Source of the DNA: Deltaproteobacteria bacterium CG11_big_fil_rev_8_21_14_0_20_42_23
Lineage (GTDB): Bacteria > UBA10199 > 2-02-FULL-44-16
Reading direction: 5' to 3'
DNA length: 64,000 bases
Assembly (NCBI GenBank): GCA_002796345.1
Contig: PCXC01000037.1
Coordinates: 58,276 to 122,275, forward strand
Shown here piece by piece: positions 9,053-59,965 of this stretch. Under the pieces are notes generated by a model. It did no database searches. It was given only the letters and a program-made list of their open reading frames with translations, and was not told the DNA's origin. The position numbers and the translations under genes were made by a program. Each line of letters opens with the position of its first letter. Position 1 is the stretch's first letter.

Positions 9053-9195
9053 TTTTGTCATTGCGAATTTGCCAAAGGCAAATGTGGCAATCTCCTCTGA
9101 CAATTGAATGAGGAGATCCTTCGTTACACTCAGGATGACAGCAAAGTGTCTGAATTGCTAGATTCCCGACAACAACATTCGGGAATGACAAAACA
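9010..9195. repeat. nested palindromic repeat element R1 (overlaps 3' end of transporter gene; downstream of adhesin gene stop)
   Basis: gtcattccctcatgg...gggaatctcctc / ctcctctgacaattgaatgaggagatccttcgttacactcaggatgacagcaaagtgt / cccgacaacaacattcgggaatgacaaaac. Shares the 40-nt arm with R3 and R4. Confidence 0.65.
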
Positions 9196-9239: not shown

Positions 9240-12200
9240 TTAAGCCACATCTTTGTTTTTCTCTTCTGCATCAACATGCTTTTCGCGGAAGTAAATGAGA
9301 CTGGCGAAGAGAAGTCCGCAAAGCGCAAGTGGTGATATGTCCGCGTTTTCACCGGAACCCAACTGACATCCGAAGTATTTATCTGAGCCACCTGATGATC
9401 CGCCAGAACCTCCACCTACAGAACTGCTTCCTCCAACGGTATATTCGAGACCATCGCCAGAGTAGATGGATCCGCTTTTTACAAGAATGTCGGAACCAAT
9501 ATCAGCTCCACTCACAATACTTACAGAAGAACTTGAGGCAACAGAGACACTTGCTGAAATGTCTTCAGAAATATCAGCAACAACTAAGCTTGATGACAAT
9601 CCTGCCGAGCCATACACAATGTAGAGTGCATTTTCTCCGCCGATGATAATATCGGCAACGCCATCTCCGGTGATGTCACCTATTGCTGATGATCGGCAGA
9701 AGAGAGGATCGCTTACATCATTATTAATAGTAACATCAGCATCATCTAAGCTAAGCGCTACGCTTAATGAGTGTGGTCCATAAACGACGTAGGCTGTTTC
9801 ACTTGTGCAGAGCAGCATGTCTTCTTCGCCGTCGTTGTTCACATCACCAAAGGCAGTGCTTTGCAGTTCACAGTTCGTGCAATCAACCGCTAAGTCTGGA
9901 TCGCTTGTAGAAAGATTGATCGTGCTTCCTGAATCTACAATAGAGTGAGTGAAAATATAAGGGAGTTCTCCAGCTGAAAGTCCGCGGGAATCTGAGTCTG
10001 TGCCGGCATCTCCCGTTGCTGTGCTTGTGAGATTAAGCTGAGCATTTGATGAAGCATTACAATCTCCAAAGTAAATACTATCGGCATCTTCAAGCACAAA
10101 TCCGTTTTGGAATGCTGAACAGGCTGGATAGTCTAAACTTCCAAACACGCTTCCTGATAAATTTGGAGAACTTCCATCCACGAGTTCATAAATATTGATC
10201 ACTCCATTGCTTGAAGCTTCTGGTGCAGAGATATACACATAATCCCCGGCAACATTGGAACCAACGGCGTGGCCAAAGCGATCTCCTGATACAGATCCAC
10301 TTACAGAGCTAAAGTCTGACGGCGTGCTTTTGCGTTCGTTCAGTTCATACGAACCTAAAAGCGTATCGGCCGTTGAGCGTGAAACATAGCATATTCCCTG
10401 CTGCGTTAAAGCTTCTGGAAAGCACACAATCACAAAACCCGCATTGGTGATAGCAATGTTGTAATCAAGAGTTGATGCTGAGCGATTTGGAACAATGATA
10501 GTAAATGCGTTGCCATCATACGTGTAGCTTAAGGTAATACTTCCTGAACCGCGCGCAGTTTCACTAACGCTGTAATTGCTTCCACTTAACACAATTTGCT
10601 CACTTGGAAGAGCACTTGTCACCGCTTGACTGACTTGCACAATGCTTACTGTGTCTGATGCCGTTTCATTATTTTCATCTGTCACCGTGAGCGTCACAAC
10701 ACTTGTTCCCGCTCCAGCTGATGTAAACACTGGCGTTGCGTTTGTAGCACTGCTGAGACTTCCGTCGCCTGAAGTGATTGCCCAACTGTACGTCACACTA
10801 CATCCGGTTGAACTTGCTCCACTTAGCGTTACCGTGTCACTTGTGTTGATCACCACATCACTGCCGGCACTAGCTACAAGTGTAGTGCTACAGGCTTCTT
10901 CCTCTTCTGCAGAAGCTGCATCTGTAATAGTTACCGTTACACTTGAAATCGAAATACCATTGTAGCCGCTATCGGAACTTGTTGCTGTGTTGGTAACTGT
11001 TGCCGAACTTCCACTCGCCTCATCCCATGTTACGGTCACAGTTTGCGGAGTATCCCAATTTGCGGTGCTGAACGTAAGCGTTGTTGGACTTACATTTACA
11101 TCTGTTCCGCCACTTGGCGTTACCGTTACACTTGCGGTTGGTTCTGCGGTTAACACAACGGTGTAGGTATCACTTGTTCCATCAACATCAACACTGGTTG
11201 ATCCACTGCTCTCTGCAATGGTAACGCCTGCAGCATCATTATCCACTACTGTAGCACTCACACTATTCACAGCAACTCCGTCATAGTCTGCATCAACACT
11301 GCTTGCACCATGGCTAATCGTACACGTGTGATTGCCATCATCCAAATCATTATCTGATGACGTCACTGATATGGTTTGCGCTGTATTCCAATTTGCACTG
11401 GTAAACGTTACTGAACTTGGTGACACATCACATGAACTCGCTGGATTTGGCGTTACCACTACGTTTGCCGTTGGCTCACTGGTAAGCACGATGGTGTAGG
11501 TGTCTGCGGTTTCTGACCCTTCCGTTACACTCGTTGCTCCACCTGACTCGGTCACACTTACTCCTGCTGAATCATCGTCGGTAATGTTAACCGTAATGTC
11601 AGTAATACTCGTCGCATTATATCCCGAGTCTGCACTGAGCACTCCGAAGCTTATCGCCGATGTATGCGCGCCCTCTGCAATATCGTCATCTACTGGCGTT
11701 ACCGTCACGGTTTGCGCGGTGTCCCAGTTGAGATTCGTAAACGTTAAGGTGAGAACGTCCACATCACTATCGGCATCGTCTGTAAGGGAAATACTCACAT
11801 TTGCGGTTGGCTGTGAATTCAAGACAACCGTAAACGTATCGGTAGTGCTGCCTTCGGTGACGTTTGTGACACCACCTGATTCAGCTACCGTTATACCAGC
11901 AGTGTCATCATCCGTAATGGTAATGGTTTGCTGTTGGGTACCCGATTCACTTCCGTTGGTCACTCCACTAATATCTAAAATAATCGTTTCGTCACTTTCA
12001 TCGATGCTATCCGTTGATGAGAACACGGTCGTGGTACCCGTTGTACTTCCGGCGCTAATGCTAATGGAATTTGAAAAGAGCGTATAGTCAGTGCCAGAAC
12101 CTGTTGCGGTACCACTTGCAGCCAAGTCAACCGTCACGTCTTTACCTGAAGCAGTGCTTAAGGTTGCAGTTACCGTTGCAAAACCTGCTCCTTCTGAAAT

Positions 12201-15200
12201 GGTTGCACTGCTCACACTCAAGCTTACCGTTGGAGGATCGTCATCATCGGTAATGGTCACCGTTACTTGCTGCGCTCCTGATTCTGTTGCGTTGGTCACA
12301 TCACTCACATCAACGATAACGGTTTCGTTATTTTCATCCAACGTATCTAAGGCAGAACTTATACTCGCCGTGCCCGTTGTGCTTCCTGCTGAAATGGAAA
12401 TAGATGTAGTTGAAAGAGTATAATCTGTTCCCGAACCTGTTGCGGTTCCGCTTGCGGACAAGGTCACCGTTACATCTCGGCCCGAAGCTGCACTTAACGT
12501 GGCGGTAAGCGTTGAACTTCCACTTGTTTCTGAAATGCTCTCGTTATTTACGGCAATGCTCACCGTTGGCGCATCGTCATCATCGGTAATGGTGACGGTG
12601 ATTTGCTGTGTTCCCACTTCTGTTCCGTTGGTCACACTGCTGATATCAACAATCGCCGTTTCATCATCTTCATCTAATGTATCTAAGGCCGAACTGATCG
12701 TAACTGTCCCTGTTGTATTTCCTGCTGAAATGGAAATGGAACTGCCAGAAAGCGTATAGTCAGTGCCTGAACCTGTTGCCGTTCCACTTGCTGATAAGTT
12801 GATCGTCACATCTTGGCCTGATGCATCACTTAACGTTGCCGTTACCGTTGCGCTTCCACTTGTCTCGGAAATGCTAATGTTATCTACCGATAACGTCACG
12901 GATGGTGCATCGTCATCATCTGTAATGGTCACCGTTACTTGCTGTGTTCCAGACTCTGTACCATTCGTCACGCTGCTGATATCAATAATCACCGTCTCGT
13001 CAGTTTCGTCGAGTAAATCTTGTTCTGAAAAAATTGTGGCCGTGCCCGTTGTTTCTCCTGATGAAATCGTAATCGAACTTGATGAAAGCGTGTAGTCTGT
13101 TCCGCTTCCTGTCGCCGTTCCACTTGCAGACAAGTTTACCGTAACATCTCGGCCCGATGCTGCACTTAACGTGGCGGTAATGGTTGAGGTTACTGCACCT
13201 TCTCCTATTGTTGCACTATCTACCGCAATGCTCACCGTTGGAGCGTCGTCATCATCTGTAATGGTCACCGTTACTTGCTGTGTTCCAGACTCTGTACCAT
13301 TCGTCACGCTGCTGATATCAATAATCACGGTTTCATCCGCCTCATCTATTGTATCTAAGGCTGAACTTATACTCGCCGTGCCCGTTGTGTTTCCAGCTGA
13401 AATGGAAATGGAGATAGTTGAAAGCGTATAATCTGTTCCCGAACCTGTCGCTGTTCCGCTTGCGGATAAATTTACCGTTACATCTTGGCCCGAAGCTGCA
13501 CTTAACGTGGCGGTTACGGTTGAACTTCCACTCGTTTCCGAAATACTTGCATTGTTTACCGCAATGCTCACCGTTGGAGCTGCATCATCATCCGTAATGG
13601 TCACCGTTACTTGCTGCGTTCCATCTTCTGTTCCGTTGGTAACGCTATCAACATCAACAATCACTGTTTCGTTCGCTTCATCGGTTGTATCTGTAGCTGC
13701 TGTTATCGTCGCTGTTCCTGTTGTGTTTCCGGCGGTAATGGAAATTGAAGTAGTGGAAAGCGTATAGTCCGCGCCCGAACCGGTTGCGGTTCCGCTTGCT
13801 GAAATGGTTACAGTTGTAGCTAAACCTGAAGCTGCACTTAAAGTTGCGGTTACGGTGGAAACCCCGCCCGTTTCGGAAATGCTGGCATTATCCACGGCAA
13901 TACTCACCGTTGGGGCTGTGTCGTTATCCGTAATATTGACCGTAACATCAGCGATCACAATCGCATTATAATTTCCATCTGCGCTTGATGCTGTATGGCC
14001 CACAGCGCTACTATGATCGCCTTCGTACAGCGTGTCGTTTGTTGCTGTAACCGTTACCGTTTGCGGGGTATCCCAATTTCCTGTGGTGAAGGTTAACGTG
14101 GCCGGACTTGTGGTACATCCACTGTCGGTATCTTCGCAAGCTGGCGTAATCACTACATCGGCCGTTGGCAAAGCATCCAGCACCATCGTGTACGTATCGG
14201 TTGATCCACCTTCGGTGACGTCGGTTGAGGCAACTGACTGAGTAATCGTCACACCTGCAACAGCATCTGTAGCACCATTCACAATCGCCACACTTTTTAA
14301 CTCTGGCGTGTAACTGGTGCTGTCTGATTCTAAAAGTGTTTTATATTGGAAGTATTGGCTCGCAGCACAAGCAGTTAAGCCTGAAATATCAACTGAAGGA
14401 AGCGCAATGGTATTTGTAGTGGATTCTGTAAAGTACGCACTTGTGCTACTATCTGGCCCCATGAAGCTTTCGCCTAAACATGCGCTGTCATTACAACAAC
14501 GAGCTTGAAATTTTTGACGAAGAGCGCCGCGTTTGTACATGTCAAGCACTTCTGTACTAGTGAGCTCTTCATCCCAAATACTCATTTCATCAAGGGTACC
14601 ATTGAAATAAGCGCGTGAAGTTGAAATGTCTTGGTCACCAATGCGTAAAGGAGCAATGGTATCAATCATTTTTGAATAGCTATTATTCGTAGGTGTAATA
14701 TTTGCTGAAGCACCATTGATATAAAAAGTTAATCCGCCTGTTGTTTTACTTCCATCATAGGTAGCACACACATGCTGCCAAGTGCCGGTAACCACTGAAT
14801 TTGTATCCGTTTGCAAACCAAGGTAGGCTGTTCCACCACCATTACTATACAGATAAAACTGAAATTTTTTATTCGTAAGCGTACCAAACTGCCATTCATA
14901 ATATTTTGTGGAACTCACCGTTTTCATTTTAGAAGCCATCATCGCGGTTTGATCAACATCACTATTAAGCCATGTACACACACTAAACGCTGTGTCTGTC
15001 GTACCATCTGTGAATGAAAGCTCTGCCTTGTCACCGCAATCTGCATATGAAGTACTGCCATCAAAATCGATGGCATCGCTTACTTTGCTTTCAGAATGAG
15101 CATAGCTAAGTGCATTTGCAGTACAGTTAAAGTGATTTCCCGAATCATCCCGTAAATCACCCGAGGCTTCATTCATGTGGTAAAGCGCCAAAAGATTGGT

Positions 15201-16271
15201 GGGATCAAAATTACCAGTGGTATATGCACTTTCTGTATTGTTGTCTGCTGTACCAGCTGCAATGCTTGCAACTTCATTAGACGATAAAGCACGAGAAAAA
15301 ATGGCAACATCATCCATACTTCCAGTAATAGGCGTTTTGCCTGAATCTGTACTTCCAAGCATAAGAGGTTGTGTGGTGTCGTAAATGTCTGCTGGTATGG
15401 TACCTCCACAAGAAAGTGTCAGCGCTGTACCATCTCGGTATATTTTCACCTTATCGGTGTTATTCACACCGGATCCATCGTACACAACAGCAAGGTGATA
15501 CCATCTTCCTACCGTAAGATTTGCATCTGTCGTCGAGCAATAGTTCGCACCAGCATCAGATGAACTGCTTGAAGCGAAAAAAACGAGCTCATCGGAAGCT
15601 GATAAGTCTGTACGAAAGAGGATGGAATTGTTTGTTGAGTTCGTAGGATTCCATTTGGTAACAATATTTTTATCTATGGCTAAGCTCGTTTGTTTCATCC
15701 ACAACGACAGAGTAAGCGCAGTACCTTGAGACTCGGTTATATTTCCAAAATCAACTTCATCATCTACACCATCAAAACTAAGAGCAGTGTTATAGACACC
15801 AAGTGATGAATAGGTTACGCCTGTGGCAGTACCATCATAGCCATTTCCAGAGGTATCACCAATCACCCCCGAGCTTTCATTCATCAACGCACGTATTGCC
15901 AAGCCTGTTGTGTCAAAGGAATCGTCTTCAATAATGGGAGTACTTTGACTGCTGGGCAATTCTTTCCCGGCAGGTCTGTTGGGAACCCAAGCAAGTGTAG
16001 ACCACAACACATCGGCTTTAGCATCTTTGATGTCGGAAATGTACGTACCGTCAGTTCCATTTGTAGATTGTTCAACCCAGCTATTCGCAGCATCCCACTG
16101 TACGGCAACATCGTCGTCACCGGTATCGATGTTAAAGGTTCCAGAGCTGTTATCGGTGAGAGTGCTCGCTTGAGCTACAGGAGTATAGATAAGGGACGAC
16201 ATCAGATACGTCATCAGCACAAGATACGTAAATCGATGCTTGCGAAAAAAATGTTGAAACCGACTCAACAT
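9240..16271 (-). CDS. giant secreted surface protein / adhesin: signal peptide, LamG-like lectin domains, ~10 Calx-beta-like repeats, FG-GAP-like repeats, Gly/Ser linker and C-terminal Cys-containing TM sorting-signal-like tail
   Basis: Single 7 kb ORF. Start taken as ATG 16271 (GGGGGGAG 5 nt upstream); the track start at 16295 is a TTG. Signal peptide MLSRFQHFFRKHRFTYLVLMTYLMSSLIYTPVAQA. LamG-type motifs DDVAIFSRALSSNEV and LDEMSIWDEELTSTEV. Six near-identical 112-aa units ending VTVTITDDDD plus four longer Calx-beta-like units. FG-GAP-like GDITGDGVADIIIGGENALYIVYG. C-terminus ...GGGSGGSSGGSDKYFGCQLGSGENADISPLALCGLLFASLIYFREKH. Confidence 0.85.
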   Translation of the reverse strand: MLSRFQHFFRKHRFTYLVLMTYLMSSLIYTPVAQASTLTDNSSGTFNIDTGDDDVAVQWDAANSWVEQSTNGTDGTYISDIKDAKADVLWSTLAWVPNRPAGKELPSSQSTPIIEDDSFDTTGLAIRALMNESSGVIGDTSGNGYDGTATGVTYSSLGVYNTALSFDGVDDEVDFGNITESQGTALTLSLWMKQTSLAIDKNIVTKWNPTNSTNNSILFRTDLSASDELVFFASSSSSDAGANYCSTTDANLTVGRWYHLAVVYDGSGVNNTDKVKIYRDGTALTLSCGGTIPADIYDTTQPLMLGSTDSGKTPITGSMDDVAIFSRALSSNEVASIAAGTADNNTESAYTTGNFDPTNLLALYHMNEASGDLRDDSGNHFNCTANALSYAHSESKVSDAIDFDGSTSYADCGDKAELSFTDGTTDTAFSVCTWLNSDVDQTAMMASKMKTVSSTKYYEWQFGTLTNKKFQFYLYSNGGGTAYLGLQTDTNSVVTGTWQHVCATYDGSKTTGGLTFYINGASANITPTNNSYSKMIDTIAPLRIGDQDISTSRAYFNGTLDEMSIWDEELTSTEVLDMYKRGALRQKFQARCCNDSACLGESFMGPDSSTSAYFTESTTNTIALPSVDISGLTACAASQYFQYKTLLESDSTSYTPELKSVAIVNGATDAVAGVTITQSVASTDVTEGGSTDTYTMVLDALPTADVVITPACEDTDSGCTTSPATLTFTTGNWDTPQTVTVTATNDTLYEGDHSSAVGHTASSADGNYNAIVIADVTVNITDNDTAPTVSIAVDNASISETGGVSTVTATLSAASGLATTVTISASGTATGSGADYTLSTTSISITAGNTTGTATITAATDTTDEANETVIVDVDSVTNGTEDGTQQVTVTITDDDAAPTVSIAVNNASISETSGSSTVTATLSAASGQDVTVNLSASGTATGSGTDYTLSTISISISAGNTTGTASISSALDTIDEADETVIIDISSVTNGTESGTQQVTVTITDDDDAPTVSIAVDSATIGEGAVTSTITATLSAASGRDVTVNLSASGTATGSGTDYTLSSSSITISSGETTGTATIFSEQDLLDETDETVIIDISSVTNGTESGTQQVTVTITDDDDAPSVTLSVDNISISETSGSATVTATLSDASGQDVTINLSASGTATGSGTDYTLSGSSISISAGNTTGTVTISSALDTLDEDDETAIVDISSVTNGTEVGTQQITVTITDDDDAPTVSIAVNNESISETSGSSTLTATLSAASGRDVTVTLSASGTATGSGTDYTLSTTSISISAGSTTGTASISSALDTLDENNETVIVDVSDVTNATESGAQQVTVTITDDDDPPTVSLSVSSATISEGAGFATVTATLSTASGKDVTVDLAASGTATGSGTDYTLFSNSISISAGSTTGTTTVFSSTDSIDESDETIILDISGVTNGSESGTQQQTITITDDDTAGITVAESGGVTNVTEGSTTDTFTVVLNSQPTANVSISLTDDADSDVDVLTLTFTNLNWDTAQTVTVTPVDDDIAEGAHTSAISFGVLSADSGYNATSITDITVNITDDDSAGVSVTESGGATSVTEGSETADTYTIVLTSEPTANVVVTPNPASSCDVSPSSVTFTSANWNTAQTISVTSSDNDLDDGNHTCTISHGASSVDADYDGVAVNSVSATVVDNDAAGVTIAESSGSTSVDVDGTSDTYTVVLTAEPTASVTVTPSGGTDVNVSPTTLTFSTANWDTPQTVTVTWDEASGSSATVTNTATSSDSGYNGISISSVTVTITDAASAEEEEACSTTLVASAGSDVVINTSDTVTLSGASSTGCSVTYSWAITSGDGSLSSATNATPVFTSAGAGTSVVTLTVTDENNETASDTVSIVQVSQAVTSALPSEQIVLSGSNYSVSETARGSGSITLSYTYDGNAFTIIVPNRSASTLDYNIAITNAGFVIVCFPEALTQQGICYVSRSTADTLLGSYELNERKSTPSDFSSVSGSVSGDRFGHAVGSNVAGDYVYISAPEASSNGVINIYELVDGSSPNLSGSVFGSLDYPACSAFQNGFVLEDADSIYFGDCNASSNAQLNLTSTATGDAGTDSDSRGLSAGELPYIFTHSIVDSGSTINLSTSDPDLAVDCTNCELQSTAFGDVNNDGEEDMLLCTSETAYVVYGPHSLSVALSLDDADVTINNDVSDPLFCRSSAIGDITGDGVADIIIGGENALYIVYGSAGLSSSLVVADISEDISASVSVASSSSVSIVSGADIGSDILVKSGSIYSGDGLEYTVGGSSSVGGGSGGSSGGSDKYFGCQLGSGENADISPLALCGLLFASLIYFREKHVDAEEKNKDVA
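11900..13915. repeat. tandem in-frame coding repeats, six units of 336 bp, inside the adhesin gene
   Basis: Antisense + strand ORFs at 12091, 12763, 13171 and 13507 are mutually similar and offset by multiples of 336 nt. The protein shows six ~112-aa APTVSIAV(D/N)NASISET...VTVTITDDDD units. Confidence 0.8.
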
Positions 16272-16523
16272 GAAACTCCCCCCAAATCCCTTCAAAAACT
16301 GTTGTAATGATTGAAAAAAGGATACTCTCTTTTAAGACAAAAAACCACCATTATTTTCTTATTTTGATACTTGTGACAAAAATAGTGTTTTTAAACACTT
16401 ATTATTTTATCATTATGAGAATTAATTGGTAAAACACTGTTTAAAGGGATTGGGAAGGCCTTTTGGGGAAAAGAGGAAGTGGGAGGTTTCTGGGGTGGGG
16501 AGGCATCAACAGTTTTTTTTATT

Positions 16524-16715
16524 TTTGTCATCCTCTGCCTTGAGCAGGCCTGCCGGCAGGCAGGGGATCCAGAATTTTTCTTTTCTAATGCCCTTAGACA
16601 GCACATCACTTGAATTGCTGGATCCCCGCCAAAATCATGCGAGGATGACAAAAAACAAAATTGGCAGAGGAGATTGCTTCACTTCGTTCACAATGACAAT
16701 GAGTTGACTAAATTT
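16524..16715. repeat. nested palindromic repeat element R2 (between adhesin gene start and actF stop)
   Basis: tttgtcatcctctgcc...gcctgccggcaggcaggggatccagaattttt...ttgaattgctggatccccgcc...gcgaggatgacaaaaaac...cttcacttcgttcacaatgacaatgagttgactaaatttc. The tail motif is shared with R3. Confidence 0.65.
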
Positions 16716-16721
16716 CTAGCT

Positions 16722-17900
16722 CTACAGGTGATGGGCGATGCCCTCTTCTAGCCAAGGATCGCCTTTGGCCACAACCGGAATACGGCTTAAGAGTTTTAGG
16801 ACGCAGAGCAAGAAAAGAGAACCAAAGCTTAAGAACATGGCCACTTCTGTCCAGCCAAAAACTGGAGCTTCTTTGAAGAACGTGGGGAAGACTAGCCAGT
16901 ACACGTCAATCCACTGTACCAACAAAAGCCACACCGCCACAAAGAGAAGAACATTTTCTTTTTTCTTCGCCGCTTGAGAAATGAGCATGAAGAAAGGAAT
17001 GATGAATTTAATTATACCAAGTGAGATAGAGAGAGATTTCCAGCCACCGTGAAATCGCTCGATGTAGAAAAATGTTTCTTCCGGCAAGTTGGCATACCAA
17101 ATGAGCATGAACTGTGAAAAGCCGATGTACGCCCAGAAAATCACAAAAGCAAAAAGCAATTTTCCCAAGTCGAACAAATGTCTCTCGTTGATAAAATGTT
17201 GAAGGTAACCAAGTTTGCGCAACACAATGGTGAAAATGGTAAGCGTTGATAAACCCGCAAGAAATAAAATCACCCAACAGTAAATGCCAAAAATGGTACT
17301 AAACCAGTGTGGAGAAAGTGACATCATCAAGTCAAAACTTGCAAAGCTAAAGAGCCATCCAAAAAATAAAATGAATGGCGCAGAAAGATAAGAATTTCTT
17401 TTGCTGAAACGAGGATCGCGTGTTTCATCTTGTTTAAGTGAATGCTTCAACATAAAAAACCCGCAAACACCCACCAACAAAAGCAATGCGAACTGACGAA
17501 TGGTGAAGAATGGTATATTCAAGTACGATTGTTTTGCGCTGAGAATTGCATCGTTCATCACCACATCATGATGCGTCCACTCATAAAGATGATGAACTCC
17601 AAAAAGTAACACCACAAACAAAATCGCCATCACCGGAACAAAAGCTACAAATGATTCTGCGATTCTGCGAATGGGAATGCTCCACTTTGATGCAGTGATA
17701 TACTGAAGTGCAACAATGAATGTTCCCGAAAGACCAATGGCTCCCCAAAAATAATAGTTGGTCAAAAAGTTGGCCCACGCGCGAACGGGATTTGACTGAA
17801 GCATCAACACAAAACTCACAATGCCAAGAACAAACAATGCTGTAAGGATGCCTTTGAATTTGGGAGAGACTTCTAATTTTTTTACAGTTGGTATCATCAT
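16722..17900 (-). CDS. actF: Alternative Complex III subunit ActF (NrfD/PsrC-like polytopic membrane protein)
   Basis: 392 aa, ~10 TM helices. Last gene of the actABCDEF order. Confidence 0.7.
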   Translation of the reverse strand: MMIPTVKKLEVSPKFKGILTALFVLGIVSFVLMLQSNPVRAWANFLTNYYFWGAIGLSGTFIVALQYITASKWSIPIRRIAESFVAFVPVMAILFVVLLFGVHHLYEWTHHDVVMNDAILSAKQSYLNIPFFTIRQFALLLLVGVCGFFMLKHSLKQDETRDPRFSKRNSYLSAPFILFFGWLFSFASFDLMMSLSPHWFSTIFGIYCWVILFLAGLSTLTIFTIVLRKLGYLQHFINERHLFDLGKLLFAFVIFWAYIGFSQFMLIWYANLPEETFFYIERFHGGWKSLSISLGIIKFIIPFFMLISQAAKKKENVLLFVAVWLLLVQWIDVYWLVFPTFFKEAPVFGWTEVAMFLSFGSLFLLCVLKLLSRIPVVAKGDPWLEEGIAHHL

Positions 17901-17914
17901 GGTTTTTTCAGTAT

Positions 17915-18496
17915 TTACTGTTGTTGTTTCAATTTTTTCAAATGCATCTCAAGCCGTTTTACATCGCTTGGTTTTGGATCGTCAGCACGCTGCAATGCGC
18001 GAAGATAGTGAGTTATAGCCCAACGCTCTTCGGGCAAAGTTTGAGAAGCATAACTTGGCATGAGGTTTTGGCCTGTTGAAATCACGTGAAAAATTTCACC
18101 GTCTTCCCACGATTTAATTTTATCCGAAAGTAAAGATGGCGGCCGTGGAAATTTTGGAACAATCGTGCCATCTCCCTCGGCACTGTGTCCATGACAAACA
18201 ACGCAGTAGATTTCGAACGCTTTTTTTCCGCGAGCAAACACTTCAGTGGTGCGAGGCAAAGGATTGTTGAGTGCATTTTTTGCACGCTCACGTTCATCGG
18301 CTGCGTAAGGATAAACATCAACATTGCGCGCAACGGTGCCTTCTACCGCTGTTTGCGGAGCTGCTTCTTGCGCCTTCACAGAAATTTGATCCATCATGTC
18401 TGGCATGTATTCGAATGCTGGTTTATCAGCACTTGAACAAGCCACACAAAGTGAAACAAGTGAAAAACTAATCAAGATGTTTAATTTCTTGTGCAT
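17915..18496 (-). CDS. actE: Alternative Complex III subunit ActE (monoheme cytochrome c, probable lipoprotein)
   Basis: Single CVVCHGH haem motif. Start probably M18 (MHKKLNILISFSLVSLCVAC...) rather than the track start 18547. Overlaps actD 3' end. Confidence 0.7.
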   Translation of the reverse strand: MHKKLNILISFSLVSLCVACSSADKPAFEYMPDMMDQISVKAQEAAPQTAVEGTVARNVDVYPYAADERERAKNALNNPLPRTTEVFARGKKAFEIYCVVCHGHSAEGDGTIVPKFPRPPSLLSDKIKSWEDGEIFHVISTGQNLMPSYASQTLPEERWAITHYLRALQRADDPKPSDVKRLEMHLKKLKQQQ

Positions 18497-18974
18497 TGCA
18501 TTCCTTAAAAACACTGTCGATTTTTTCTTCATGATAATGAACATCACTACTATCTACAAAAAGTGCGAACTGATCATCGGTGATGCGTGGATCAAGTTTT
18601 CGCGTTTTCAATCCGTGGTGAATGATCATCGCCCACAAAATAAGCACTGTCGTGACTCCGCTGAACAAGATAGTAAGCTCAAACGTAACGGGAATAAATG
18701 AAGGCCAGCTAAAGGCCGGCTTTCCACCAATGTTGAGATGCCAGTCAACTGATTGCGTCCAATACTGAAACAAAAGCCCAAGCGATCCGCCAGTGAGGCC
18801 AAAGAAAAGTGCGGAATACGAAATCCAAGAACGCTTAATCCCCATGGCGGCTTCCATTCCGTGAATGGGAAACGGACTAAATGCATCCATCTTTTTGATA
18901 TTGAGATGGCGCAGTCTTTTTGCAGCCACCAAGACTTCATGCGGATCATTGAAAAGAGCTATTTTCCCTTTCAT
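18468..18974 (-). CDS. actD: Alternative Complex III subunit ActD (membrane subunit)
   Basis: 168 aa, two TM helices. ATGA overlap with actC stop. Confidence 0.65.
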   Translation of the reverse strand: MKGKIALFNDPHEVLVAAKRLRHLNIKKMDAFSPFPIHGMEAAMGIKRSWISYSALFFGLTGGSLGLLFQYWTQSVDWHLNIGGKPAFSWPSFIPVTFELTILFSGVTTVLILWAMIIHHGLKTRKLDPRITDDQFALFVDSSDVHYHEEKIDSVFKECNAQEIKHLD

Positions 18975-20344
18975 CAGTGACCTCCCTTATGGGCATTGGG
19001 ACTTGGCATAATTGACTTCACTTCAAACATACAAATAGTGGGAAGCACTCGACAGAAAAGGAGGAAGAACATCATGAAGAAACCAAAACTACCAATGGTA
19101 ATTCCCCAATCGTGATCTGTCATTTTATAGTATCCCCAATTTGCGGGAAGGAAATCGCGATGCAATGAAGTAACTACAATCACAAAACGCTCGAACCACA
19201 TTCCAATGTTGGCAAAGATTGATGCTACAAACATTACCGGAATGGAGCGTCGAAGTTTTTTGAACCAGAAAAGTTGTGGCACAATCATGTTGCAGCTTAC
19301 CATAATCCAGTAGGCCCAAGCATACGGCCCAGCAATACGGTTGAGGAAAGCAAAGCGTTCGTAAATATTTCCGCTATACCAAGCGGTGAAAAGCTCGATC
19401 ATGTAGGCATAGCCAACAATCATTCCCGTAACCAACATCACCTTGTTCATTTTTTCCATGTGGCCAATAGTGATGTAATCTTTGAGGTTAAACACTTCAC
19501 GAACAATAGTAAGCAACGTAACCACCATGGCAAAGCCAGAGAACACGGCACCTGCAACGAAGTATGGTGGAAAAATAGTGGTATGCCAGCCAGGCACAAC
19601 TGAAACGGCAAAGTCAAAACTTACAATTGAATGCACCGAAAGAACAAGTGGAGTACTCAAGCCTGCAAGAAGCAAATACACCATTTCATAGTGCGTCCAC
19701 TTGCGGGCGGAACCTCTCCAACCAAAGGACATAACGCCATAGATAAGTTTTCGAATCTTATTTTTTGCGCGGTCGCGAACACTTGCGATATCGGGGATTA
19801 AACCTGTGTACCAAAAGAGAAAAGAAATAGTGAAGTAGGTTGAAACCGCAAACACATCCCACAAAAGTGGTGAGTTGAAGTTCACCCAAAGGTTTCTTTC
19901 ATTGGGATAAGGAAATAACCAAAACGCAAGCCAAGGACGACCGGTGTGAATGAGCGGAAAAATTCCAGCAGTCATCACGGCAAAGATAGTCATAGCCTCA
20001 GCTGAACGGTTGATGGCTGTTCTCCACTTTTGGCGGAAGAGAAACAAAACTGCAGAAATTAATGTTCCGGCGTGACCAATACCAACCCAAAAAACGAAGT
20101 TGGTGATGAAGACTCCCCAACCAACAGGATGATTAAGACCTAAGGTTCCAAGGCCAACACGAAACATGTTCGTTGCATAACAAAGCCCCACCAAAAAAAT
20201 GAGCACCGAAAGCACAAAACAAATCCACCACTTTTTCATCGGCAAAGATTCGAGTGGCTTGCACACCCTTTGCCCAATATCAGCGTAGCTTTTCCCCGGT
20301 GTCACTAAGGGTTCTTGAACGAGTTGGTTTCCTTGAATATCCAT
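18974..20344 (-). CDS. actC: Alternative Complex III subunit ActC (NrfD/PsrC-like quinol-interacting membrane subunit)
   Basis: 456 aa polytopic membrane protein of the NrfD/PsrC type. Directly downstream of the Mo/FeS subunit. Confidence 0.75.
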
Positions 20345-20355
20345 ATCGATTTTAC

Positions 20356-23322
20356 TTACACATTTCTAATTTTGGTTAAATACGTCACCACTGGACGTGT
20401 GTTAAGCTCTGCAAGTACATGATAGCCGCGTTGTGACGCTGCCATTTTTGCCACTTGGCTTTCTTTCATGTTTAAGTCACCAAACGTAATGGCTTGCGCT
20501 GGGCAGGTTTGCTGGCAAGCGGTTTTAATTTCGCCGTCTTTTAATTCTCGTTTTTCAATAATGGCATCATTTCGTTTTTCTTGAATCCGCTGAATACAGA
20601 AGGTACATTTTTCCATCACGCCTCTGCTGCGTGTGGTGATGTCTGGGTTCAAAACCTGATTCATCGGTTCTTTTATGCTAAGCGTTTGTTCAAAAAAGTT
20701 GAAGCGTCTCACTTTGTAAGGGCAGTTGTTTGCACAATACCGGGTTCCAACGCAACGATTGTAGCTCATCATGTTCAAGCCATCATCGCTGTGGAACGTT
20801 GCTAGTGTTGGGCAAACGGTTTCGCAAGGTGCATTGCTGCACTGCTGACAAGTCATAGGCTGATGTGAAACATTTGGATTTGCAGTTTTTCCTTTTTCAC
20901 TGCTGTAGTAACGATCGATGCGAATCCAGTGCATTTCCCGTCCGCGAATCACCTGCTCTTTGCCTACGACGGGAATATTATTCTCCGCCTGACAAGCAAC
21001 TACACAAGCGCTGCAACCAGTACATGCGTTGGTATCAATCACCATTCCCCAACGGTGGCCTTCGTATTTGCGTTCTTCCCACATGCTTGGAAGTTCTGCG
21101 TGTTTTTTTATTCCAGCATGAGGATTGTGCTGAAACTCTTTCCATGTTGCATCGGAAAAAATATCGTGGGCACGGTTTTCAAGTTCATGATGTCCTTGCG
21201 TGCAAGCAAGCAGTGCCGTTTTTCCTGTTTTTTCGAGCTCAACTTTTATTCCATTCCAGCTTGGAGTTTGATGCGCGTACGATTGAAAAGGATAAACCTG
21301 CATTCCATGAGGAGCCGCAAAGCCAAGCGCAACAGCTGCTGTAGCGTCATGCAATTTTGGCTGAATGTGAACTGGAAGCTCGGCAGAAAACGTTTCACTT
21401 TTTACTTTCACTACATCACCTTCGCGAAGTGAAAGCTTTGTTGCTGTTGCAAGAGAAAGGGAAACAACATTTTCCCACGTAAGTTTTGTGACGGGATCTG
21501 GAAGTTCCAGAAGCCAGCTGTTTGTATTATTTCTTCCATCGTAGAGAGAAAGACTTGGATAAAGCGCCAAGCTAAGTTCTGCAGATGAAGAAAGTTGTGG
21601 CAAGTTTTTCAACGCTGAAGGGTTGAAGGTTTCAGCAGAAGCTATTCTGCCGTGATCGTTTCTTTTGGAAGCAAACGCATCAACAAATCCCATCTTCAAG
21701 GCATCTTTCCAAGAAAGAGAACTTGAAACTCGAGGAAGCACTTCGCTTTTCCAATTGTGCTTCAACACTTCGTGATAATTTGATTCGCTGCCAGACCAAT
21801 GCAGCAAAGAATCTTGACATGATCTACCTTGGTGAAGCGGCGCAATTACAGGCTGCACAAGGGTATAAAGTCCGCGCTCTGGATTTGCATCGCCCCAAGC
21901 TTCAAGGTAATGCGTGCCAGGACAAACGACATGGCTTTGTGCGGAGGTTGCCGTAAAATAATCTGCGCAAGAAATAACAAGCCCCACTTTTTTCAGCGCT
22001 TCTTCGCAGTTTAATTCTGCGGGAAGTGTAAAGAGAGGATCTGCATCGGCGACAATAAGCACTTCCACTTCACCAGCGTGCATTTCTGCCACAAGGTGTT
22101 TGAGTTCTTCAAACGAACTGCCCACGTAATCGCGAGGAGCAAGCGTCCAGTCTAGCGTTACACCATCATTGGCAAGTGTAGAGTTGATAAAGTTTACCGC
22201 CACTTGAAGCAGCACAGCATCTTTTGCATTTGGATTGGCTCCAACTACAAGACCTGTTCCGCGTGAAGCAACAAGTTCTTCTGCTGTTTCTACAATGTGA
22301 GATGCAGGAAAATTAATTTTGCTTTCAAGTTTTTCTGGAGCATAGCTTCGTAAAGAGCTTGCTACACTTGCATTTCCGGTTCGCCTTGCAACTTCATAAG
22401 CAAGACTTAGCGCAACAAAAATTTCATCTCCCGCTTTCACCGGAACAAACATATCTGCATTTGTACCCGTTACGGTTGGAACAGATTCAAAGGCAATGAA
22501 GCGTGACATTTTTCCCGCGTCAACATTTCTGCCTTCGGAAAATCCAGCCATATTGCGAACTGGATTCATCCAATTGCCAAGGAAATCGGCGCCAAAAGAA
22601 ACAATGACTTTTGCCTCTTCAAAACGATAGCGTGGCAAGAGTGATTTTCCGTACGAAAGCTTTGCCGCTTCAACCATTTCATTTGGAAAAACAGAATCGT
22701 ATGAAATGCTTGCTGCGTTGTAGGTATTTTCAAAACTTCGCAGTACTTTTTGCGTAGTAGGAGAGCTGCTTACACCCGTAAGCACTCTTATTTTTCCGCC
22801 TGTTTTTTTCACGGCATCAAGCTTGGCGATGATGTGCTTGTCGAGGTCTTCCCAGTTGCTTTCTTTTAGCGTTCCATTTTGCACAAAGCTTGGAGCTTTG
22901 ATTCTATCGGGATGATACAAATCCAGCAAACTGGCTTGCGCTCTGGCTGAGAGGCCCGTTGCATTGAGAGGAGCATCAACATTTGGCTCAAGTTTAACCG
23001 GACGGCCTTCGCGCGTTCTGACTAAAACTGCATAAGAGGAACTTCCATCTTCAAAACTAGAAGCGTACCAAACCGGAACACCAGGAATCACACCTTCTGG
23101 CTTGTTGATGTAAGGCATAATTTTTTCAACAGGTCTTCGTGTACAGGCAGCGCCCGCCATAGCGATACTTGCCGCCATTACCTTTAAAAAGTCGCGGCGT
23201 TCCATGCCGGACATTTCGGCTTTCTGAGGAGGCTCTGCAAACTCTTTTCCCGTACGAGCTTCAAACTCTGCCGTTTGCTCGAGCTCTTCGATGCTTTTCC
23301 AAAAGGTCACATTTTTCTTCAT
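20356..23322 (-). CDS. actB: Alternative Complex III subunit ActB (molybdopterin-oxidoreductase-like domain fused to 4Fe-4S ferredoxin domain, Tat signal)
   Basis: Start likely M16 ([20 protein letters not shown]..., typical ActB N-terminus). Twin-arginine motif [19 protein letters not shown]-terminal Cys clusters [38 protein letters not shown]. Confidence 0.85.
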
Positions 23323-23323
23323 A

Positions 23324-23851
23324 TTAATAATGACAGCTTTCACAATGCGTTGGAGCATTTTTCTCACGATGGCAATCGATACAAAATCCCATCTGTAATG
23401 TTTTTACTTGGCTAACCCGTTCCATACTTCCCACATCACCATGACACTGCGTACAATCAAGCCCAGCCGCAATATGCCGTTCGTGGGTAAACCGAACATG
23501 ATCTGGAAGATCGTGCACTTTTATCCACTCGAGAGGCTGCCCATTGGCATACATATCGCGAAGCTTTTGAATATAAGGACTGTCCAGCTTCACTACCTGG
23601 TGACAGTTCATGCAAATATTCATAGCAGGCACAACAGCGTGCTTCGATTTATCAACTCCCACATGACAATACTGGCAAGGGATTTGATTATCTCCGGCGT
23701 GAAGTTTATGGCTAAAGGGAATCGGCTGCTTTGGAGCATAACCAGTGTTGTCGCCAAGTTTCACCAAACTCCGCACTCCAAATGCCAATAAAATGACCGG
23801 AAGAGATAAAAGAGAAAGAAATAAAATTTTCTGGAAGCACTTACCCTTCAA
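23324..23851 (-). CDS. actA: Alternative Complex III subunit ActA (pentahaem cytochrome c)
   Basis: Five CxxCH motifs: CQYCH, CMNCH, CTQCH, CIDCH, CESCH. N-terminal signal/anchor. Confidence 0.85.
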   Translation of the reverse strand: MKGKCFQKILFLSLLSLPVILLAFGVRSLVKLGDNTGYAPKQPIPFSHKLHAGDNQIPCQYCHVGVDKSKHAVVPAMNICMNCHQVVKLDSPYIQKLRDMYANGQPLEWIKVHDLPDHVRFTHERHIAAGLDCTQCHGDVGSMERVSQVKTLQMGFCIDCHREKNAPTHCESCHY

Positions 23852-24122
23852 TGATTTCCCCTTGGAACAACCTCTCGTTGAAATAATGTGGGCGCTATCT
23901 ACCCTCCTTGAAAATTTCTGTCGAGGAAAAAATCGAGATCAAATGAAAAAGTCTCAAACAGGAAATAAAGGACTCTCCGCCTCTAAAAAGTCTGAAGAAA
24001 ACAAACTCTATTACGAACCCAAAAGAGGAGTTGCTTTCAAGCATACCTGTCACCTTCAACGCAAAAGAAAGCCCCCAGCTTTTTCCTTGCCTGTCCTCTA
24101 AGATCTTGTTAGAGGCCCTCAC

Positions 24123-24935
24123 ATGAAAATTCGGACTTTAACAATTTGCTTTTTTTTCGCCCTTTTTTCTCTTTTATCGCATCATCTTGTGGCCGCAGAA
24201 TCAACTCCTGTCGAGCTTAAAGACGTTGGTATAGAAGAGCACTTGGGTGAACAGATTACGCTCTCGCTTCCTTTTTTGGACCAAAATGGAAATGAAGTGA
24301 CACTTGCGGACTACTTTCACAAAGACAAAGCAGTGCTTTTTGTATTTGTTTATTATGAATGTCCGGGGCTTTGTACTTTCGTTTTAAACGGAATGATAAA
24401 TGGGCTTCGCGACGTGCAGCTCACTCCTGGAAAAGAATTTGAAATCGTGGTGGTGAGTATTGATTCCAAGGAAACTCCACTACTGGCGAAAGAAAAGTTA
24501 ACTTCGTATTTGAAAATGTATCGTGAAGGCAGCACTGAAAGTGGTTGGCACTTTCTTACTGGAAGTGACGAAAGCATTCGGCAACTCACGAAAGAAATTG
24601 GTTTCTCCTATGTTTACGATGCCGAGCAAAAGCAGTTTGCACACGCATCTGCCGTTTACGCACTCACACCAACCGGAAAAATTTCTCGCTATCTTTTTGG
24701 CATCGAGTATGCGCCCAGAGATGTGAAACTCGCTCTTCTTGAAGCAAGCGAAGGAAAATTAGGAAACCTTATTGATAAGCTTTTGCTCTACTGCTATCAC
24801 TACGACCCCAAAGGAAAAAAGTATGCCCTTCTTGCAGTGAATATTATGAAAATTGCAGGTGTCATCACCCTCCTTGGGCTTGGAATATTGATTCATCTTC
24901 TGATGAAAAAACGAAAAAAGGCGGAAAGACTATGA
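24123..24935 (+). CDS. sco: SCO1/SenC-family copper chaperone (thioredoxin-like, CxxxC)
   Basis: Signal/anchor, YYECPGLCTFVLNGM CxxxC motif. First gene of the oxidase operon. Confidence 0.75.
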   Translation: MKIRTLTICFFFALFSLLSHHLVAAESTPVELKDVGIEEHLGEQITLSLPFLDQNGNEVTLADYFHKDKAVLFVFVYYECPGLCTFVLNGMINGLRDVQLTPGKEFEIVVVSIDSKETPLLAKEKLTSYLKMYREGSTESGWHFLTGSDESIRQLTKEIGFSYVYDAEQKQFAHASAVYALTPTGKISRYLFGIEYAPRDVKLALLEASEGKLGNLIDKLLLYCYHYDPKGKKYALLAVNIMKIAGVITLLGLGILIHLLMKKRKKAERL

Positions 24936-25909
24936 TTGGAACTATAAACCTTCCTCAAGCTTCATCAATGGCGGGAAACGTTGATGCACTTTATTCTTTT
25001 ATTTTCATTATTTCACTTATTAGCTTCGCTCTTATTGTTGGCGCGTTGGTTTACTTTTCCTACAAGTACAGCAGAAAAAAATGCAACTCCGAAACGACCG
25101 CTTACATTCATGGAAACACAGCGCTTGAAGTAGGAATGAGTGCCGTTTTGTTCGTCATCGTTATGGTGATTTTTGCATGGGGTTGGATCGATTACAAAAA
25201 AATACGACTCGTTCCCGCAAATGCGCTTGAAGTCAATGTTATCGGACAGCAATGGTTGTGGAACCTCGAATATAAAAACGGAAGAAAACTTACCAACGAA
25301 CTTGTTGTTCCAAAAGATGTTCCCGTCAAATTAGTCATGGGTTCCAAAGATGTGTTGCACAGCTTTTATGTGCCTGCATTTCGTTTGAAGCAAGATCTTG
25401 TTCCTGGTCAATTCACCTATATTTCTTTCACCGCAATTGAACTTGGTGAGTTTCCCATCTTCTGCGCGGAATTCTGCGGTACAGCTCACTATGGCATGAT
25501 TGGAAAAGTGAAAGTGGTAGAAAAAGCAGCCTACGAAAAATGGCAAAACGTTTGGGAACTTGAGCAACGCTTAGGCATCAACGAAGCCGAAGCTTCAGAA
25601 AAAACAACTACGCAACTTTCACCAGTTGAACACGGAAAAGAACTCTTTACCAAACAAGGCTGCACCGCTTGTCACTCTACAGGCACCAACAAACTTGTTG
25701 GCCCTGGTTTAGCTGGCCTCTTTGGAAAAGAAACAACGCTTACAGATGGAAAAAAATTAACCGTAGACGAAAACTACATTAGAAGATCGCTTATGGAACC
25801 AAATGCTGAACTGGTAGAGGGCTTTGCTCCTCTTATGCCTACGTTTAAAGGACAATTGAGTGATGAAGAAGTCAATCATCTGATTGCATATTTGAAAAGC
25901 CTTCAATAA
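24932..25909 (+). CDS. coxB: cytochrome c oxidase subunit II with C-terminal cytochrome c domain (caa3-type)
   Basis: CuA motif HSFYVPAF...FCAEFCGTAHYGM. C-terminal CTACHS haem-c site. Confidence 0.9.
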   Translation: MIGTINLPQASSMAGNVDALYSFIFIISLISFALIVGALVYFSYKYSRKKCNSETTAYIHGNTALEVGMSAVLFVIVMVIFAWGWIDYKKIRLVPANALEVNVIGQQWLWNLEYKNGRKLTNELVVPKDVPVKLVMGSKDVLHSFYVPAFRLKQDLVPGQFTYISFTAIELGEFPIFCAEFCGTAHYGMIGKVKVVEKAAYEKWQNVWELEQRLGINEAEASEKTTTQLSPVEHGKELFTKQGCTACHSTGTNKLVGPGLAGLFGKETTLTDGKKLTVDENYIRRSLMEPNAELVEGFAPLMPTFKGQLSDEEVNHLIAYLKSLQ

Positions 25910-25945
25910 TTTAAAGTCGCACCAAAAGAAAAACGGAGAACTACC

Positions 25946-27544: not shown

Positions 27545-27578
27545 CCGTTAACGAAAGAAAATTTTAGAAGAGGTTCCT

Positions 27579-28211: not shown

Positions 28212-28283
28212 TTTTTTTGTACCATTAACGTGCAGTCATCCCGAACGAGATGACAGGCTTAGAAGACATCAGCGAGAATAATT

Positions 28284-29054: not shown

Positions 29055-29067
29055 ATTTTGAGGAAAA

Positions 29068-29279: not shown

Positions 29280-29280
29280 A

Positions 29281-59945: not shown

Positions 59946-59965
59946 GCTTTTCCTTTGTTAATCTC

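Follow-up and report, generated by a model that had tools for sequence, protein, structure and literature searches.

The stretch of 64,000 nucleotides analysed here is referred to as the window, and all positions follow its numbering. On the minus strand, an open frame without interruption spans 9240..16295 and encodes, from an ATG at 16271, a protein of 2,343 amino acids (aa) that we describe as adhesin-like (Table 1). The same start was chosen by the gene callers of three archives (ENA, NCBI, and JGI), and a TTG at 16295 provides an alternative that would add 8 aa. The identical 2,343-aa product is present in 9 contigs from ENA, NCBI (GCA_002793395.1), and JGI, which represent independent assemblies. 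Given that about 5% of random codons are stops, an open frame of 2,343 codons is not explicable by chance, and this is a real gene. It is adjoined by genes for ActF of ACIII and for an SDF symporter, and a promoter-like site upstream of the start weakly suggests that it forms its own transcription unit after the ACIII operon. On either side of the gene lies one copy of a repeat, the two being direct repeats; we considered a mobile cassette and set this reading aside, as further members of this repeat family are dispersed over the window. A literature search found no publications on the assembly accession.

Table 1. Features of the adhesin-like gene and of its product, in window coordinates.
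Feature	Residues (aa)	Position	Strand	Basis or remark
Promoter-like site, TTGTCA-18-AATAAT (10/12)		16350..16379	-	Consensus scan alone, weak; ~80 nt upstream of start
Shine-Dalgarno-like sequence GGGGGGAG		16276..16283	-	4 nt 5' of ATG 16271; sequence inspection
Coding sequence, 2,343-aa protein	1-2343	9240..16271	-	ORF list; stop codon 9240-9242
Putative Sec signal peptide	1-35	16167..16271	-	Translation, by eye: basic n-region (RKHR), hydrophobic core, AQA/ST cleavage site
Laminin_G_3 module 1 (ConA-like lectin/glucanase fold)	167-335	15267..15773	-	Pfam PF13385, 83.4 bits, profile 1-151/151
Laminin_G_3 module 2	422-575	14547..15008	-	Pfam PF13385, best stretch
Divergent beta-sandwich repeat "type B" (NW..PQTVTVT motif)	672-784	13920..14258	-	Calx-beta E 0.034, 14.6 bits vs cut-off 27
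Six tandem 112-aa Calx-beta domains	785-1456	11904..13919	-	Pfam PF03160, 164 bits, 6 stretches
Three more divergent "type B" beta-sandwich repeats	1457-1784	10920..11903	-	Sub-threshold Calx-beta/fn3_6; DNA repeat family D4
K319L-like PKD domain	1802-1877	10641..10868	-	Pfam PF22352, 39.9 bits vs cut-off 27
Two FG-GAP repeats	2138-2211	9639..9860	-	Pfam PF01839; DxNxDGxxD-type loops FGDVNNDGEED, IGDITGDGVAD
Gly/Ser-rich linker GGSSSVGGGSGGSSGGS	2280-2296	9384..9434	-	Translation; 53% identity to ortholog
Pre-membrane motif Y-F-G-C-Q-L-G-S-G-E-N-A-D-I-S-P-L-A	2299-2316	9324..9377	-	14/18 residues identical in ortholog P0002
Hydrophobic segment ISPLALCGLLFASLIYF	2312-2328	9288..9338	-	Predicted single transmembrane helix; Kyte-Doolittle mean 2.2-2.3
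Short cytoplasmic end (predicted), REKH (2329-2332) + VDAEEKNKDVA	2329-2343	9243..9287	-	Translation

A sequence-only reading of this DNA had described a secreted protein headed by LamG lectin-like modules and continuing with Calx-beta and FG-GAP repeats, and profile searches back it at the level of domains, with Pfam Laminin_G_3, Calx-beta, and FG-GAP all above their gathering scores. The signal peptide that it had proposed can be recognized in the translation, and both of its ConA/LamG-like modules are matched (Laminin_G_3, 142 bits in 2 stretches over the whole protein vs a cut-off of 27.6). Its ten Calx-beta-like repeats stand only in part. Six exceed the Pfam threshold (in total 164 bits vs 27, with a full-length profile match, 1-119/119); each of these terminates in (V/I)T(V/I)TITDDD, and at the DNA level they form a 336-nt tandem repeat with 65-80% identity. 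The other four, one ahead of this array and three behind it, are divergent and below threshold (Calx-beta E 0.03-0.06 or no match), the last three giving Calx-beta E 0.057 and fn3_6 E from 2e-4 to 0.07. These are followed by a PKD domain that the earlier reading did not mention, and by the FG-GAP region it had predicted, where two repeats are recognizable (aa 2138-2157 and 2193-2211; 29.1 bits for the whole protein vs a cut-off of 22.1, and 17.2 and 21.0 bits for the single repeats). With a mean pLDDT of 38.9, the AlphaFold model obtained for the last 463 aa was unusable for deciding whether a full FG-GAP propeller is formed. Homology is limited at both ends of the protein: the N-terminal 755 aa share at most 31% identity with any LamG relative, apart from a few matches of 46-54% over 13-16% of the query, and the C-terminal 466 aa have one ortholog only (P0002) in the homolog search.

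The elements assigned earlier to the C-terminal tail (linker, Gly-Cys, transmembrane stretch, and REKH) are all present in the translation. Between the Gly/Ser-rich linker and the 17-residue hydrophobic stretch lies YFGCQLGSGENADISP, which carries the Gly-Cys pair at aa 2301-2302 (Cys2302 codon at 9366-9368), and the hydrophobic segment is modelled, with low confidence, as a helix in the structure model of the C-terminal part. The tail does not end at REKH, as had been assumed, but runs on with 11 mostly acidic residues (VDAEEKNKDVA), so that the post-membrane segment carries a net charge near -1 and lacks a basic, Arg-rich cluster; the counterpart of this end in P0002 is RIKSTNHASEDAA. Cys2302 is separated from the hydrophobic segment by a charged, hydrophilic spacer of 11 residues (QLGSGENADIS). 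Published Haft-type signals have an Arg cluster and no hydrophilic spacer between Cys and helix; thus, the tail departs from them in its spacer, its lack of an Arg cluster, and its acidic C-terminal extension. A second cysteine within the hydrophobic stretch (Cys2318) is not kept in the ortholog, so that Cys2302 alone is conserved, in two sequences.

The sequence-only reading had likened this tail to the MYXO-CTERM, GlyGly-CTERM, and PEP-CTERM class. None of the NCBIfam sorting-signal models matched at E<=10, whether the query was the full-length protein, the tail by itself (three tail fragments included), the ortholog tail, or a tail ended with RRRR, whereas in the same scan an authentic PEF-CTERM tail and peptides close to the MYXO, GlyGly, and PEP-CTERM consensus scored above cut-off. 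Membership of the tail in any of these three classes is not supported, and, as judged by profile comparison, it belongs to no described sorting-signal family.

We then considered the enzymes encoded nearby, in the ~85 kb of contig that comprise the window and 10 kb on each side. No exosortase, rhombosortase, EPS locus, or rhomboid-family gene of any kind was found in this contig. The sole intramembrane proteases are two generic, tandem Rce1-like CPBP paralogs, 47 kb from the adhesin-like gene. The first (62972-63748, in the window) has no Mrt_core match. The second lies immediately beyond the window end and came to light when the flanks were extended by 10 kb, an extension that yielded no exosortase, rhombosortase, or second tail; it scores 47 bits with MrtS (cut-off 130), 46 with MrtJ (75), and 34 with Mrt_core (100). 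Other myxosortase models gave 24 bits for MrtC (cut-off 195) and 20 for MrtP (250). No sorting enzyme is adjacent to the gene, and the ~85 kb hold only these two sub-cut-off CPBP proteases; over the models and the contig searched, this and the silent profiles count against the sorting-signal reading. The same contig encodes an Omp85/POTRA protein (BamA- or TamA-type) and TamB, which argues for a diderm envelope. The nearest relatives of the encoded FtsZ (62-69% over full length, 76% in one partial match) come from MAGs labelled Myxococcales, Deltaproteobacteria, and Pseudobdellovibrionaceae.

These observations bear on two readings in which a known type of enzyme would cleave the tail. One would place the tail within the PEP-CTERM family as a divergent member (compare the VPLPA, IPTL, and PEF variants), with a signature D-[IM]-S-P-L-A abutting the helix and cleavage by an exosortase. 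Its Ser-Pro, where the hydrophobic segment begins, is kept in the ortholog; the signals of exosortases and archaeosortases as a rule have a proline-containing signature next to the helix; and a true PEF-CTERM tail is found on P0004, a distant FG-GAP homolog. However, no PEP-CTERM family model (TIGR02595 family) matches the tail at E<=10 while the consensus-like control matches 20 models, the Arg cluster is absent, and neither exosortase nor EPS locus is encoded in the contig; we regard this as very improbable. An origin as a GlyGly-CTERM signal, in which a rhombosortase would cleave at the G-S-G motif and glycerophosphoethanolamine would be attached, appears more improbable still: although LGSG is conserved upstream of the helix, its glycines lie 5-7 residues before the helix with charged residues after them, TIGR03501 is silent on the tail (28 bits for the consensus-like control), and the inspected contig has no rhomboid-family gene.

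Nor is the tail shared beyond the ortholog in the sets searched. In an exhaustive HMMER search of 1.84e9 representative proteins (E<=0.001), the tail profile found that of the ortholog P0002 and no other; four further matches were internal and multi-stretch, and were rejected as tails. Querying a word-indexed protein set with the alignment of the two tails gave zero candidates, and a scan of GTDB-representative genomes with tail patterns returned 49 matches, none of which was confirmed (0/49). No similar tail occurs in 82 LamG relatives and 7 FG-GAP relatives; the transmembrane tails of P0024, P0026, P0064, and P0091 are unrelated. Closer to the gene, the window encodes no other large secreted protein with such a C-terminal tail, and no second copy of the tail occurs in about 140 kb of this organism and its relatives. 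This covers the window of 64 kb, its flanks (~20 kb), and ~64 kb of contigs from the same or related populations (8 loci), which were collected from JGI metagenomes using the dispersed intergenic repeat as a tag.

The locus of P0002 has other neighbours than the gene described here. An in-frame TGA stands at the position of Cys2051; it was considered as a selenocysteine codon, and this was dismissed because no hairpin exceeding chance expectation follows it (z=0.30). As the 5' part of the ortholog is moreover cut off, adjoining a transposase-like start, P0002 is more likely a pseudogene, judging by these sequence features. Between the two sequences, identity is 78% in the pre-membrane motif, 53% in the linker, and 41% in the helix.

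A third reading takes the tail as a lineage-private, Cys-containing sorting signal resembling MYXO-CTERM or JDVT-CTERM. After Sec export, Cys2302 would be modified, probably lipidated, and a CPBP glutamic intramembrane protease would cut off the helix; the lipid-anchored adhesin would then travel to the surface through a type II secretion system. In favour of this, the protein is probably too long to be housed in the periplasm. The layout is tripartite-like, with a Gly/Ser linker ahead of it and a Gly-Cys that the ortholog keeps while losing the second Cys; yet the 11-residue hydrophilic spacer and the missing Arg cluster are both contrary to the published description. Likewise, the pre-membrane motif is more conserved than the linker and helix beside it, but no more so than the folded domains (Fisher p=1). 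The labels of the FtsZ relatives would suit such a signal, as would the lineage sensitivity of the MYXO-CTERM models and the precedent of JDVT-CTERM, typically a one-client system. Against this, TIGR03901 and TIGR03382 (MYXO-CTERM; 35.7 and 30.1 bits for the control peptide) and NF033191 and TIGR04564 (the RRRR-ended variant included) are as silent at E<=10 as all other models, with controls above cut-off, and the searched proteins and contigs contain no second client. The candidate protease would be one of the two tandem CPBP genes, the second of which is weakly similar to MrtS, MrtJ, and Mrt_core; its scores are nevertheless far under the Mrt cut-offs, and the genes are 47 kb away, whereas single-client systems have an adjacent enzyme in 16/17 cases. 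On balance, we consider a signal of this kind unlikely.

A bolder form of this idea, which we rate as rather improbable, is that the tail, written as Y-x-G-C-Q-L-G-S-G-x-N-x-D-x-S-P-(helix)-R-x-K, would found a new type of single-client sorting signal with a Cys, in an uncultured, deeply branching relative of Myxococcota and Bdellovibrionota. It would be cut by an as yet unassigned intramembrane protease, possibly one of the tandem CPBP paralogs, and would deliver a 250-kDa lectin-headed adhesin to the surface.

We favour a simpler explanation, to which we give an even chance: the product may be an adhesin that has a lectin-like head, is exported by Sec and stiffened by Ca2+, and is held by an unclassified C-terminal transmembrane tail. 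From the translated sequence and its domain matches we infer that the protein has a signal peptide, binds Ca2+, serves as an adhesin or lectin, and takes the topology given here. The protein would be a very long, modular component of the cell envelope, Sec-exported by an uncultured groundwater diderm of a delta-proteobacteria-like lineage. Its two ConA/LamG-fold modules would form a distal head, probably ligand-binding and with a glycan as the likely ligand, carried on a rod of about ten beta-sandwich domains, six of them apparently bona fide Ca2+-binding Calx-beta domains and four divergent. The rod would lead through the PKD domain and a short FG-GAP region into a flexible Gly/Ser linker and on to a single C-terminal transmembrane helix. 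Acting as a stop-transfer anchor, this helix would keep the exported protein in place at the cytoplasmic membrane, which is the most economical mechanism. To our knowledge, every tripartite C-terminal signal must likewise pass first through such a membrane-held state.

Several features of the protein sit uneasily with a plain anchor. The roughly 14 beta-sandwich and lectin modules would be far longer than the width of the periplasm, so an inner-membrane anchor in a diderm would leave the reach of the head to the outside unexplained. The Gly/Ser linker, conserved Gly-Cys, transmembrane helix, and membrane-proximal R-x-K together have the look of Cys-type sorting signals, and the pre-membrane motif is better conserved than its flanks. 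The anchor reading also draws on a small part of the genome, and paralogous tails and a cognate enzyme may lie elsewhere.

Environmental bacteria commonly encode giant modular adhesins, and to these the present protein adds little more than a new arrangement of familiar modules, from a groundwater lineage that has been poorly sampled. The tail is the one point of wider interest. If it is a processed signal, the recently established Cys-dependent, CPBP-processed systems (myxosortases) would extend to another lineage and take in a new motif; should it serve only as a membrane anchor, then "Cys + helix + basic residue" at a C-terminus would be insufficient to call a sorting signal.

Among known systems, the MYXO-CTERM proteins of Myxococcota (e.g., TraA), which are sorted by MrtX, MrtC, or MrtP, likewise include large secreted surface or adhesion proteins. 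They share with the protein described here a Gly-Cys (conserved here in two sequences), a charge-free transmembrane helix (predicted here) with basic residues directly after it, and a diderm host of a delta-proteobacteria-like lineage. In contrast to MYXO-CTERM signals, the tail has a charged 11-residue spacer from Cys to helix, and R-E-K-H with an acidic extension replaces the Arg cluster. MYXO-CTERM genomes encode several to dozens of unrelated clients, whereas the regions examined here contain no other, and no CPBP protease on this contig attains the myxosortase cut-offs. The tail resembles that of the JDVT-CTERM/MrtJ system in having one conserved Cys with Asp at +9 and Pro at +12, near the helix start, and in being borne, apparently, by one protein. 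It differs in having D-I-S-P in place of the DP dipeptide and no NF033191 match, in CPBP genes that are not adjacent (adjacent in 16/17 JDVT-CTERM cases), and in a best CPBP score of 46 bits vs the MrtJ cut-off of 75. Unlike in GlyGly-CTERM, no GG abuts the helix, the glycines being set back from it by 5-7 residues and followed by charged residues.

For the remainder of the protein, the closest likeness is to giant modular Ca2+-dependent adhesins, with which it shares a ConA-like head, tandem Calx-beta, PKD, and FG-GAP domains, acidic DDD and DExDE motifs, DNA-level variation of the tandem array, and a gene standing alone amid housekeeping genes. Where those adhesins carry a T1SS, T9SS, PEP-CTERM, or GlyGly-CTERM signal, the predicted anchor here is an unclassified transmembrane tail. 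Finally, the six central repeats match the full Calx-beta profile and are weakly similar to NCX1 (CBD1/CBD2, PDB 3us9; 20 bits, marginal), and the Calx-beta domains of NCX1 belong to a cytoplasmic regulatory loop whereas the tandem array described here would be extracellular.

The giant gene (window 9240-16271, minus strand), whose product supplies the residue numbering used here, is real and intact. Window 9240..16295 on the minus strand forms a single uninterrupted reading frame, the ATG at 16271 has GGGGGGAG upstream with a spacer of 4 nt, and on weak evidence a promoter-like site is placed about 80 nt upstream of the start. An identical 2,343-aa product is recorded in ENA ERZ27293414 (a 139-kb contig), NCBI GCA_002793395.1 (PFQD01000191) and JGI contigs, with the same start across independent gene callers. 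What the sequence-only reading described is borne out with minor corrections. It lies after the alternative complex III operon (ActA-F) and before an SDF-family symporter gene and tatABC, none of which shows a relation to protein sorting. The operon itself is complete (ActABCDEF, minus strand), with the adhesin gene immediately after ActF. Together with the cytochrome c oxidase cluster that it faces back to back (SCO1, COX2, COX1, COX3-like, COX4-cytochrome c fusion, CtaA, CtaB), it occupies window 16722-31000. Copies of a dispersed intergenic repeat, with a TGTCATCCTGAGTGTAACGAAGGATCTCC core, often in close inverted pairs, and a GGGATCCAGCAATTCA arm, occur at window 9102-9190, 16597-16676, 29109-29265, 31990-32128 and 59963-60000. 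They lie on both sides of the giant gene, and at other places in the window too. The element looks like a REP or MITE and has exact matches in 8 JGI metagenome contigs.

The product is a Sec-exported modular protein in which a ConA-like pair is followed by a rod rich in Calx-beta domains, then by PKD and FG-GAP, and a single hydrophobic helix closes the chain. HMM searches upheld the proposed LamG pair, FG-GAP and Calx-beta domains, but of the "ten Calx-beta-like repeats" six are certain and four are look-alikes, since these divergent beta-sandwich (type B) repeats score E 0.03-0.06 against Calx-beta, or weakly against fn3_6. The K319L-like PKD domain had been overlooked. In the DNA, the Calx-beta array has a 336-nt period, with 65-80% identity between repeats. 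Judging by what is known of these families, Ca2+ binding by the Calx-beta domains, which contain acidic DDD and DExDE motifs, is probable, and the LamG pair makes a plausible glycan- or ligand-binding head. The sole PDB sequence match was NCX1 CBD12, a marginal one, and for the last 463 residues AlphaFold gave no usable model (pLDDT 38.9).

Features of the 2,343-aa protein and the CPBP protease genes
Feature	Position	Strand	Remark
Signal peptide	aa 1-35		ends AQA, then S; inferred by eye
Segment without any match	aa 36-166
Two Laminin_G_3 modules	aa 167-335 and 422-575
Cys-containing segment without match	~aa 586-671
One divergent beta-sandwich repeat	aa 672-784
Six tandem 112-aa Calx-beta domains	aa 785-1456		full profile matched, 164 bits
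Three further divergent repeats	aa 1457-1784
K319L-like PKD domain	aa 1802-1877
Segment without match	~aa 1880-2130
Two FG-GAP repeats	aa 2138-2211
G/S linker	aa 2280-2296
Tail	aa 2298-2343		KYFGCQLGSGENADISPLALCGLLFASLIYFREKHVDAEEKNKDVA
CPBP protease 1	window 62972-63748	(-)
CPBP protease 2	L007 9183-9989		next gene, just past window end

The protein belongs to a well-known kind, but its tail (a conserved GC at Cys2302, the hydrophobic helix, REKH and 11 further residues) is an orphan. Neither the whole protein nor three tail fragments matched a sorting-signal model at E<=10 in NCBIfam, whose collection includes those of TIGRFAM as well as its own. As positive controls for short peptides we used the real PEF-CTERM tail of a distant FG-GAP homolog and consensus-like MYXO-CTERM, GlyGly-CTERM and PEP-CTERM peptides, each of which exceeded the curated cut-off of the model for its class; in the same run the window tail, the ortholog tail and an RRRR-ended window tail had no match. 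Judged by these models, the tail is no known sorting signal, and its earlier placement in the MYXO-/GlyGly-/PEP-CTERM class is wrong or at least unproven. A PEP-CTERM-like tail is very improbable and a GlyGly-CTERM tail even more so.

Searches with the C-terminal 466 aa found one tail-bearing relative only, P0002 from JGI groundwater metagenomes (66% identity), which ends ...NYLGCQLGSGGNLDMSPLAVFAFFLTGLIFFRIKSTNHASEDAA. It keeps Y-x-G-C-Q-L-G-S-G-x-N-x-D-x-S-P-L-A and F-R-x-K and lacks the second Cys (C2318). The pre-helix motif is identical at 14 of 18 positions, exceeding the linker (53%) and helix (41%) but not the folded domains (74%; Fisher p=1). When 1.84 billion representative proteins were searched exhaustively by HMMER with a two-tail profile, P0002 alone was recovered, four other matches being rejected as internal and multi-stretch, not tails. 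No such tail was confirmed in GTDB representative genomes, a similar tail is absent in all 82 LamG relatives and in the FG-GAP relatives, and no second one was seen in the window, 20 kb of added flanks or 64 kb of metagenome contigs obtained with the dispersed repeat as tag. As short signals reach low scores and the sequence covered is only a small fraction of the genome, this is absence of evidence, not proof.

The ortholog is likely a pseudogene. An in-frame TGA aligns to window Cys2051 (L003, the ortholog locus, 1960-1990; JGI Ga0210005_1000473); the fragment is recorded from 11 contigs, the two-ORF split is identical in all four loci shown, and the 5' part stops at a contig break, adjoining a divergent ORF starting MELTKAQYERIRDLLPTQRGNVRV that looks like an IS5-type transposase. 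That the TGA encodes Sec, forming a Cys/Sec pair with Cys2051, is unlikely, as no SECIS-like hairpin beyond chance follows it (z=0.30).

About 6-10 kb upstream of the window start, the contig carries a cluster of small prophage-like genes (L011 1-3800), which encode HTH_3 and HTH_17 regulators, an S24 LexA-like repressor and DUF1376. Also upstream is a gene for a 700-aa protein with no Pfam match and weak YD-repeat/RHS-core likeness (L011 6240-8342, minus strand), which adjoins the Ser/Thr kinase gene running off the window start. Two same-population assemblies (L010 and L011) have their sequence in common as far as the 171-aa gene and diverge completely from locus ~10,520 (window ~900), with a HATPase_c protein in one and pabABC-like genes in the other; this is a strain-level rearrangement or insertion point. 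At window 39606-40754 (minus strand), an AAA_14 + DUF4143 ATPase gene, flanked by hrcA-grpE and an MltD/LysM lytic transglycosylase, weakly matched the anti-phage GapS1 model (18.6 bits, cut-off 320).

After Sec export, the tail helix must at least work as a stop-transfer anchor. Such a membrane anchor is the best-supported mechanism, at roughly an even chance, and is preferred because no test placed the tail in a known sorting class. The main rival, less likely, is a private signal of the Cys type with processing as for MYXO-CTERM (PMC11980579; Haft 2023 preprint); the linker-GC-helix-RxK layout, the argument that a ~14-module rod would exceed the length of a periplasm and the host lineage speak for it. 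A modest share of the probability falls to none of the readings considered. Over its full length, the window FtsZ shares 62-69% identity with its closest relatives among GTDB species representatives (76% in one partial match); these are MAGs that carry the labels uncultured Myxococcales, Deltaproteobacteria, Pseudobdellovibrionaceae or Pseudomonadota, which places the organism in a poorly represented, delta-proteobacteria-like lineage.

The matching sortase-like protease sought on the earlier suggestion was not found nearby: about 85 kb of contig holds no exosortase, rhomboid or archaeosortase gene, and two tandem Rce1-like CPBP (intramembrane protease family) proteases, 47 kb from the giant gene, fall far under every myxosortase-type cut-off (Mrt_core, 34 bits for one and no match for the other, cut-off 100; MrtJ, 46 and 28, cut-off 75; MrtS, 47 and 29, cut-off 130). 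In NCBIfam, they come closest to NF041647, an ABC-permease/CPBP fusion, in its CPBP half. The pair adjoins genes for an LD-carboxypeptidase (S66), a beta-lactamase-fold protein, a Mur ligase, TamB and an Omp85/POTRA (BamA- or TamA-type) protein; the last two indicate a diderm envelope. The ortholog's gene neighbourhood is wholly different from the window's, which leaves no partner gene conserved between them.

We regard a new single-client Cys-type sorting signal as improbable. The protease gene is adjacent in 16 of the 17 published single-client systems, whereas here no such enzyme lies beside the giant gene and the CPBP pair is 47 kb off. Unlike published intramembrane-protease signals, the tail has its conserved Cys and hydrophobic segment 11 residues apart, separated by a hydrophilic spacer with E, N and D, and its basic cluster is merely R-E-K-H, followed by 11 mostly acidic residues for a net charge of about -1.
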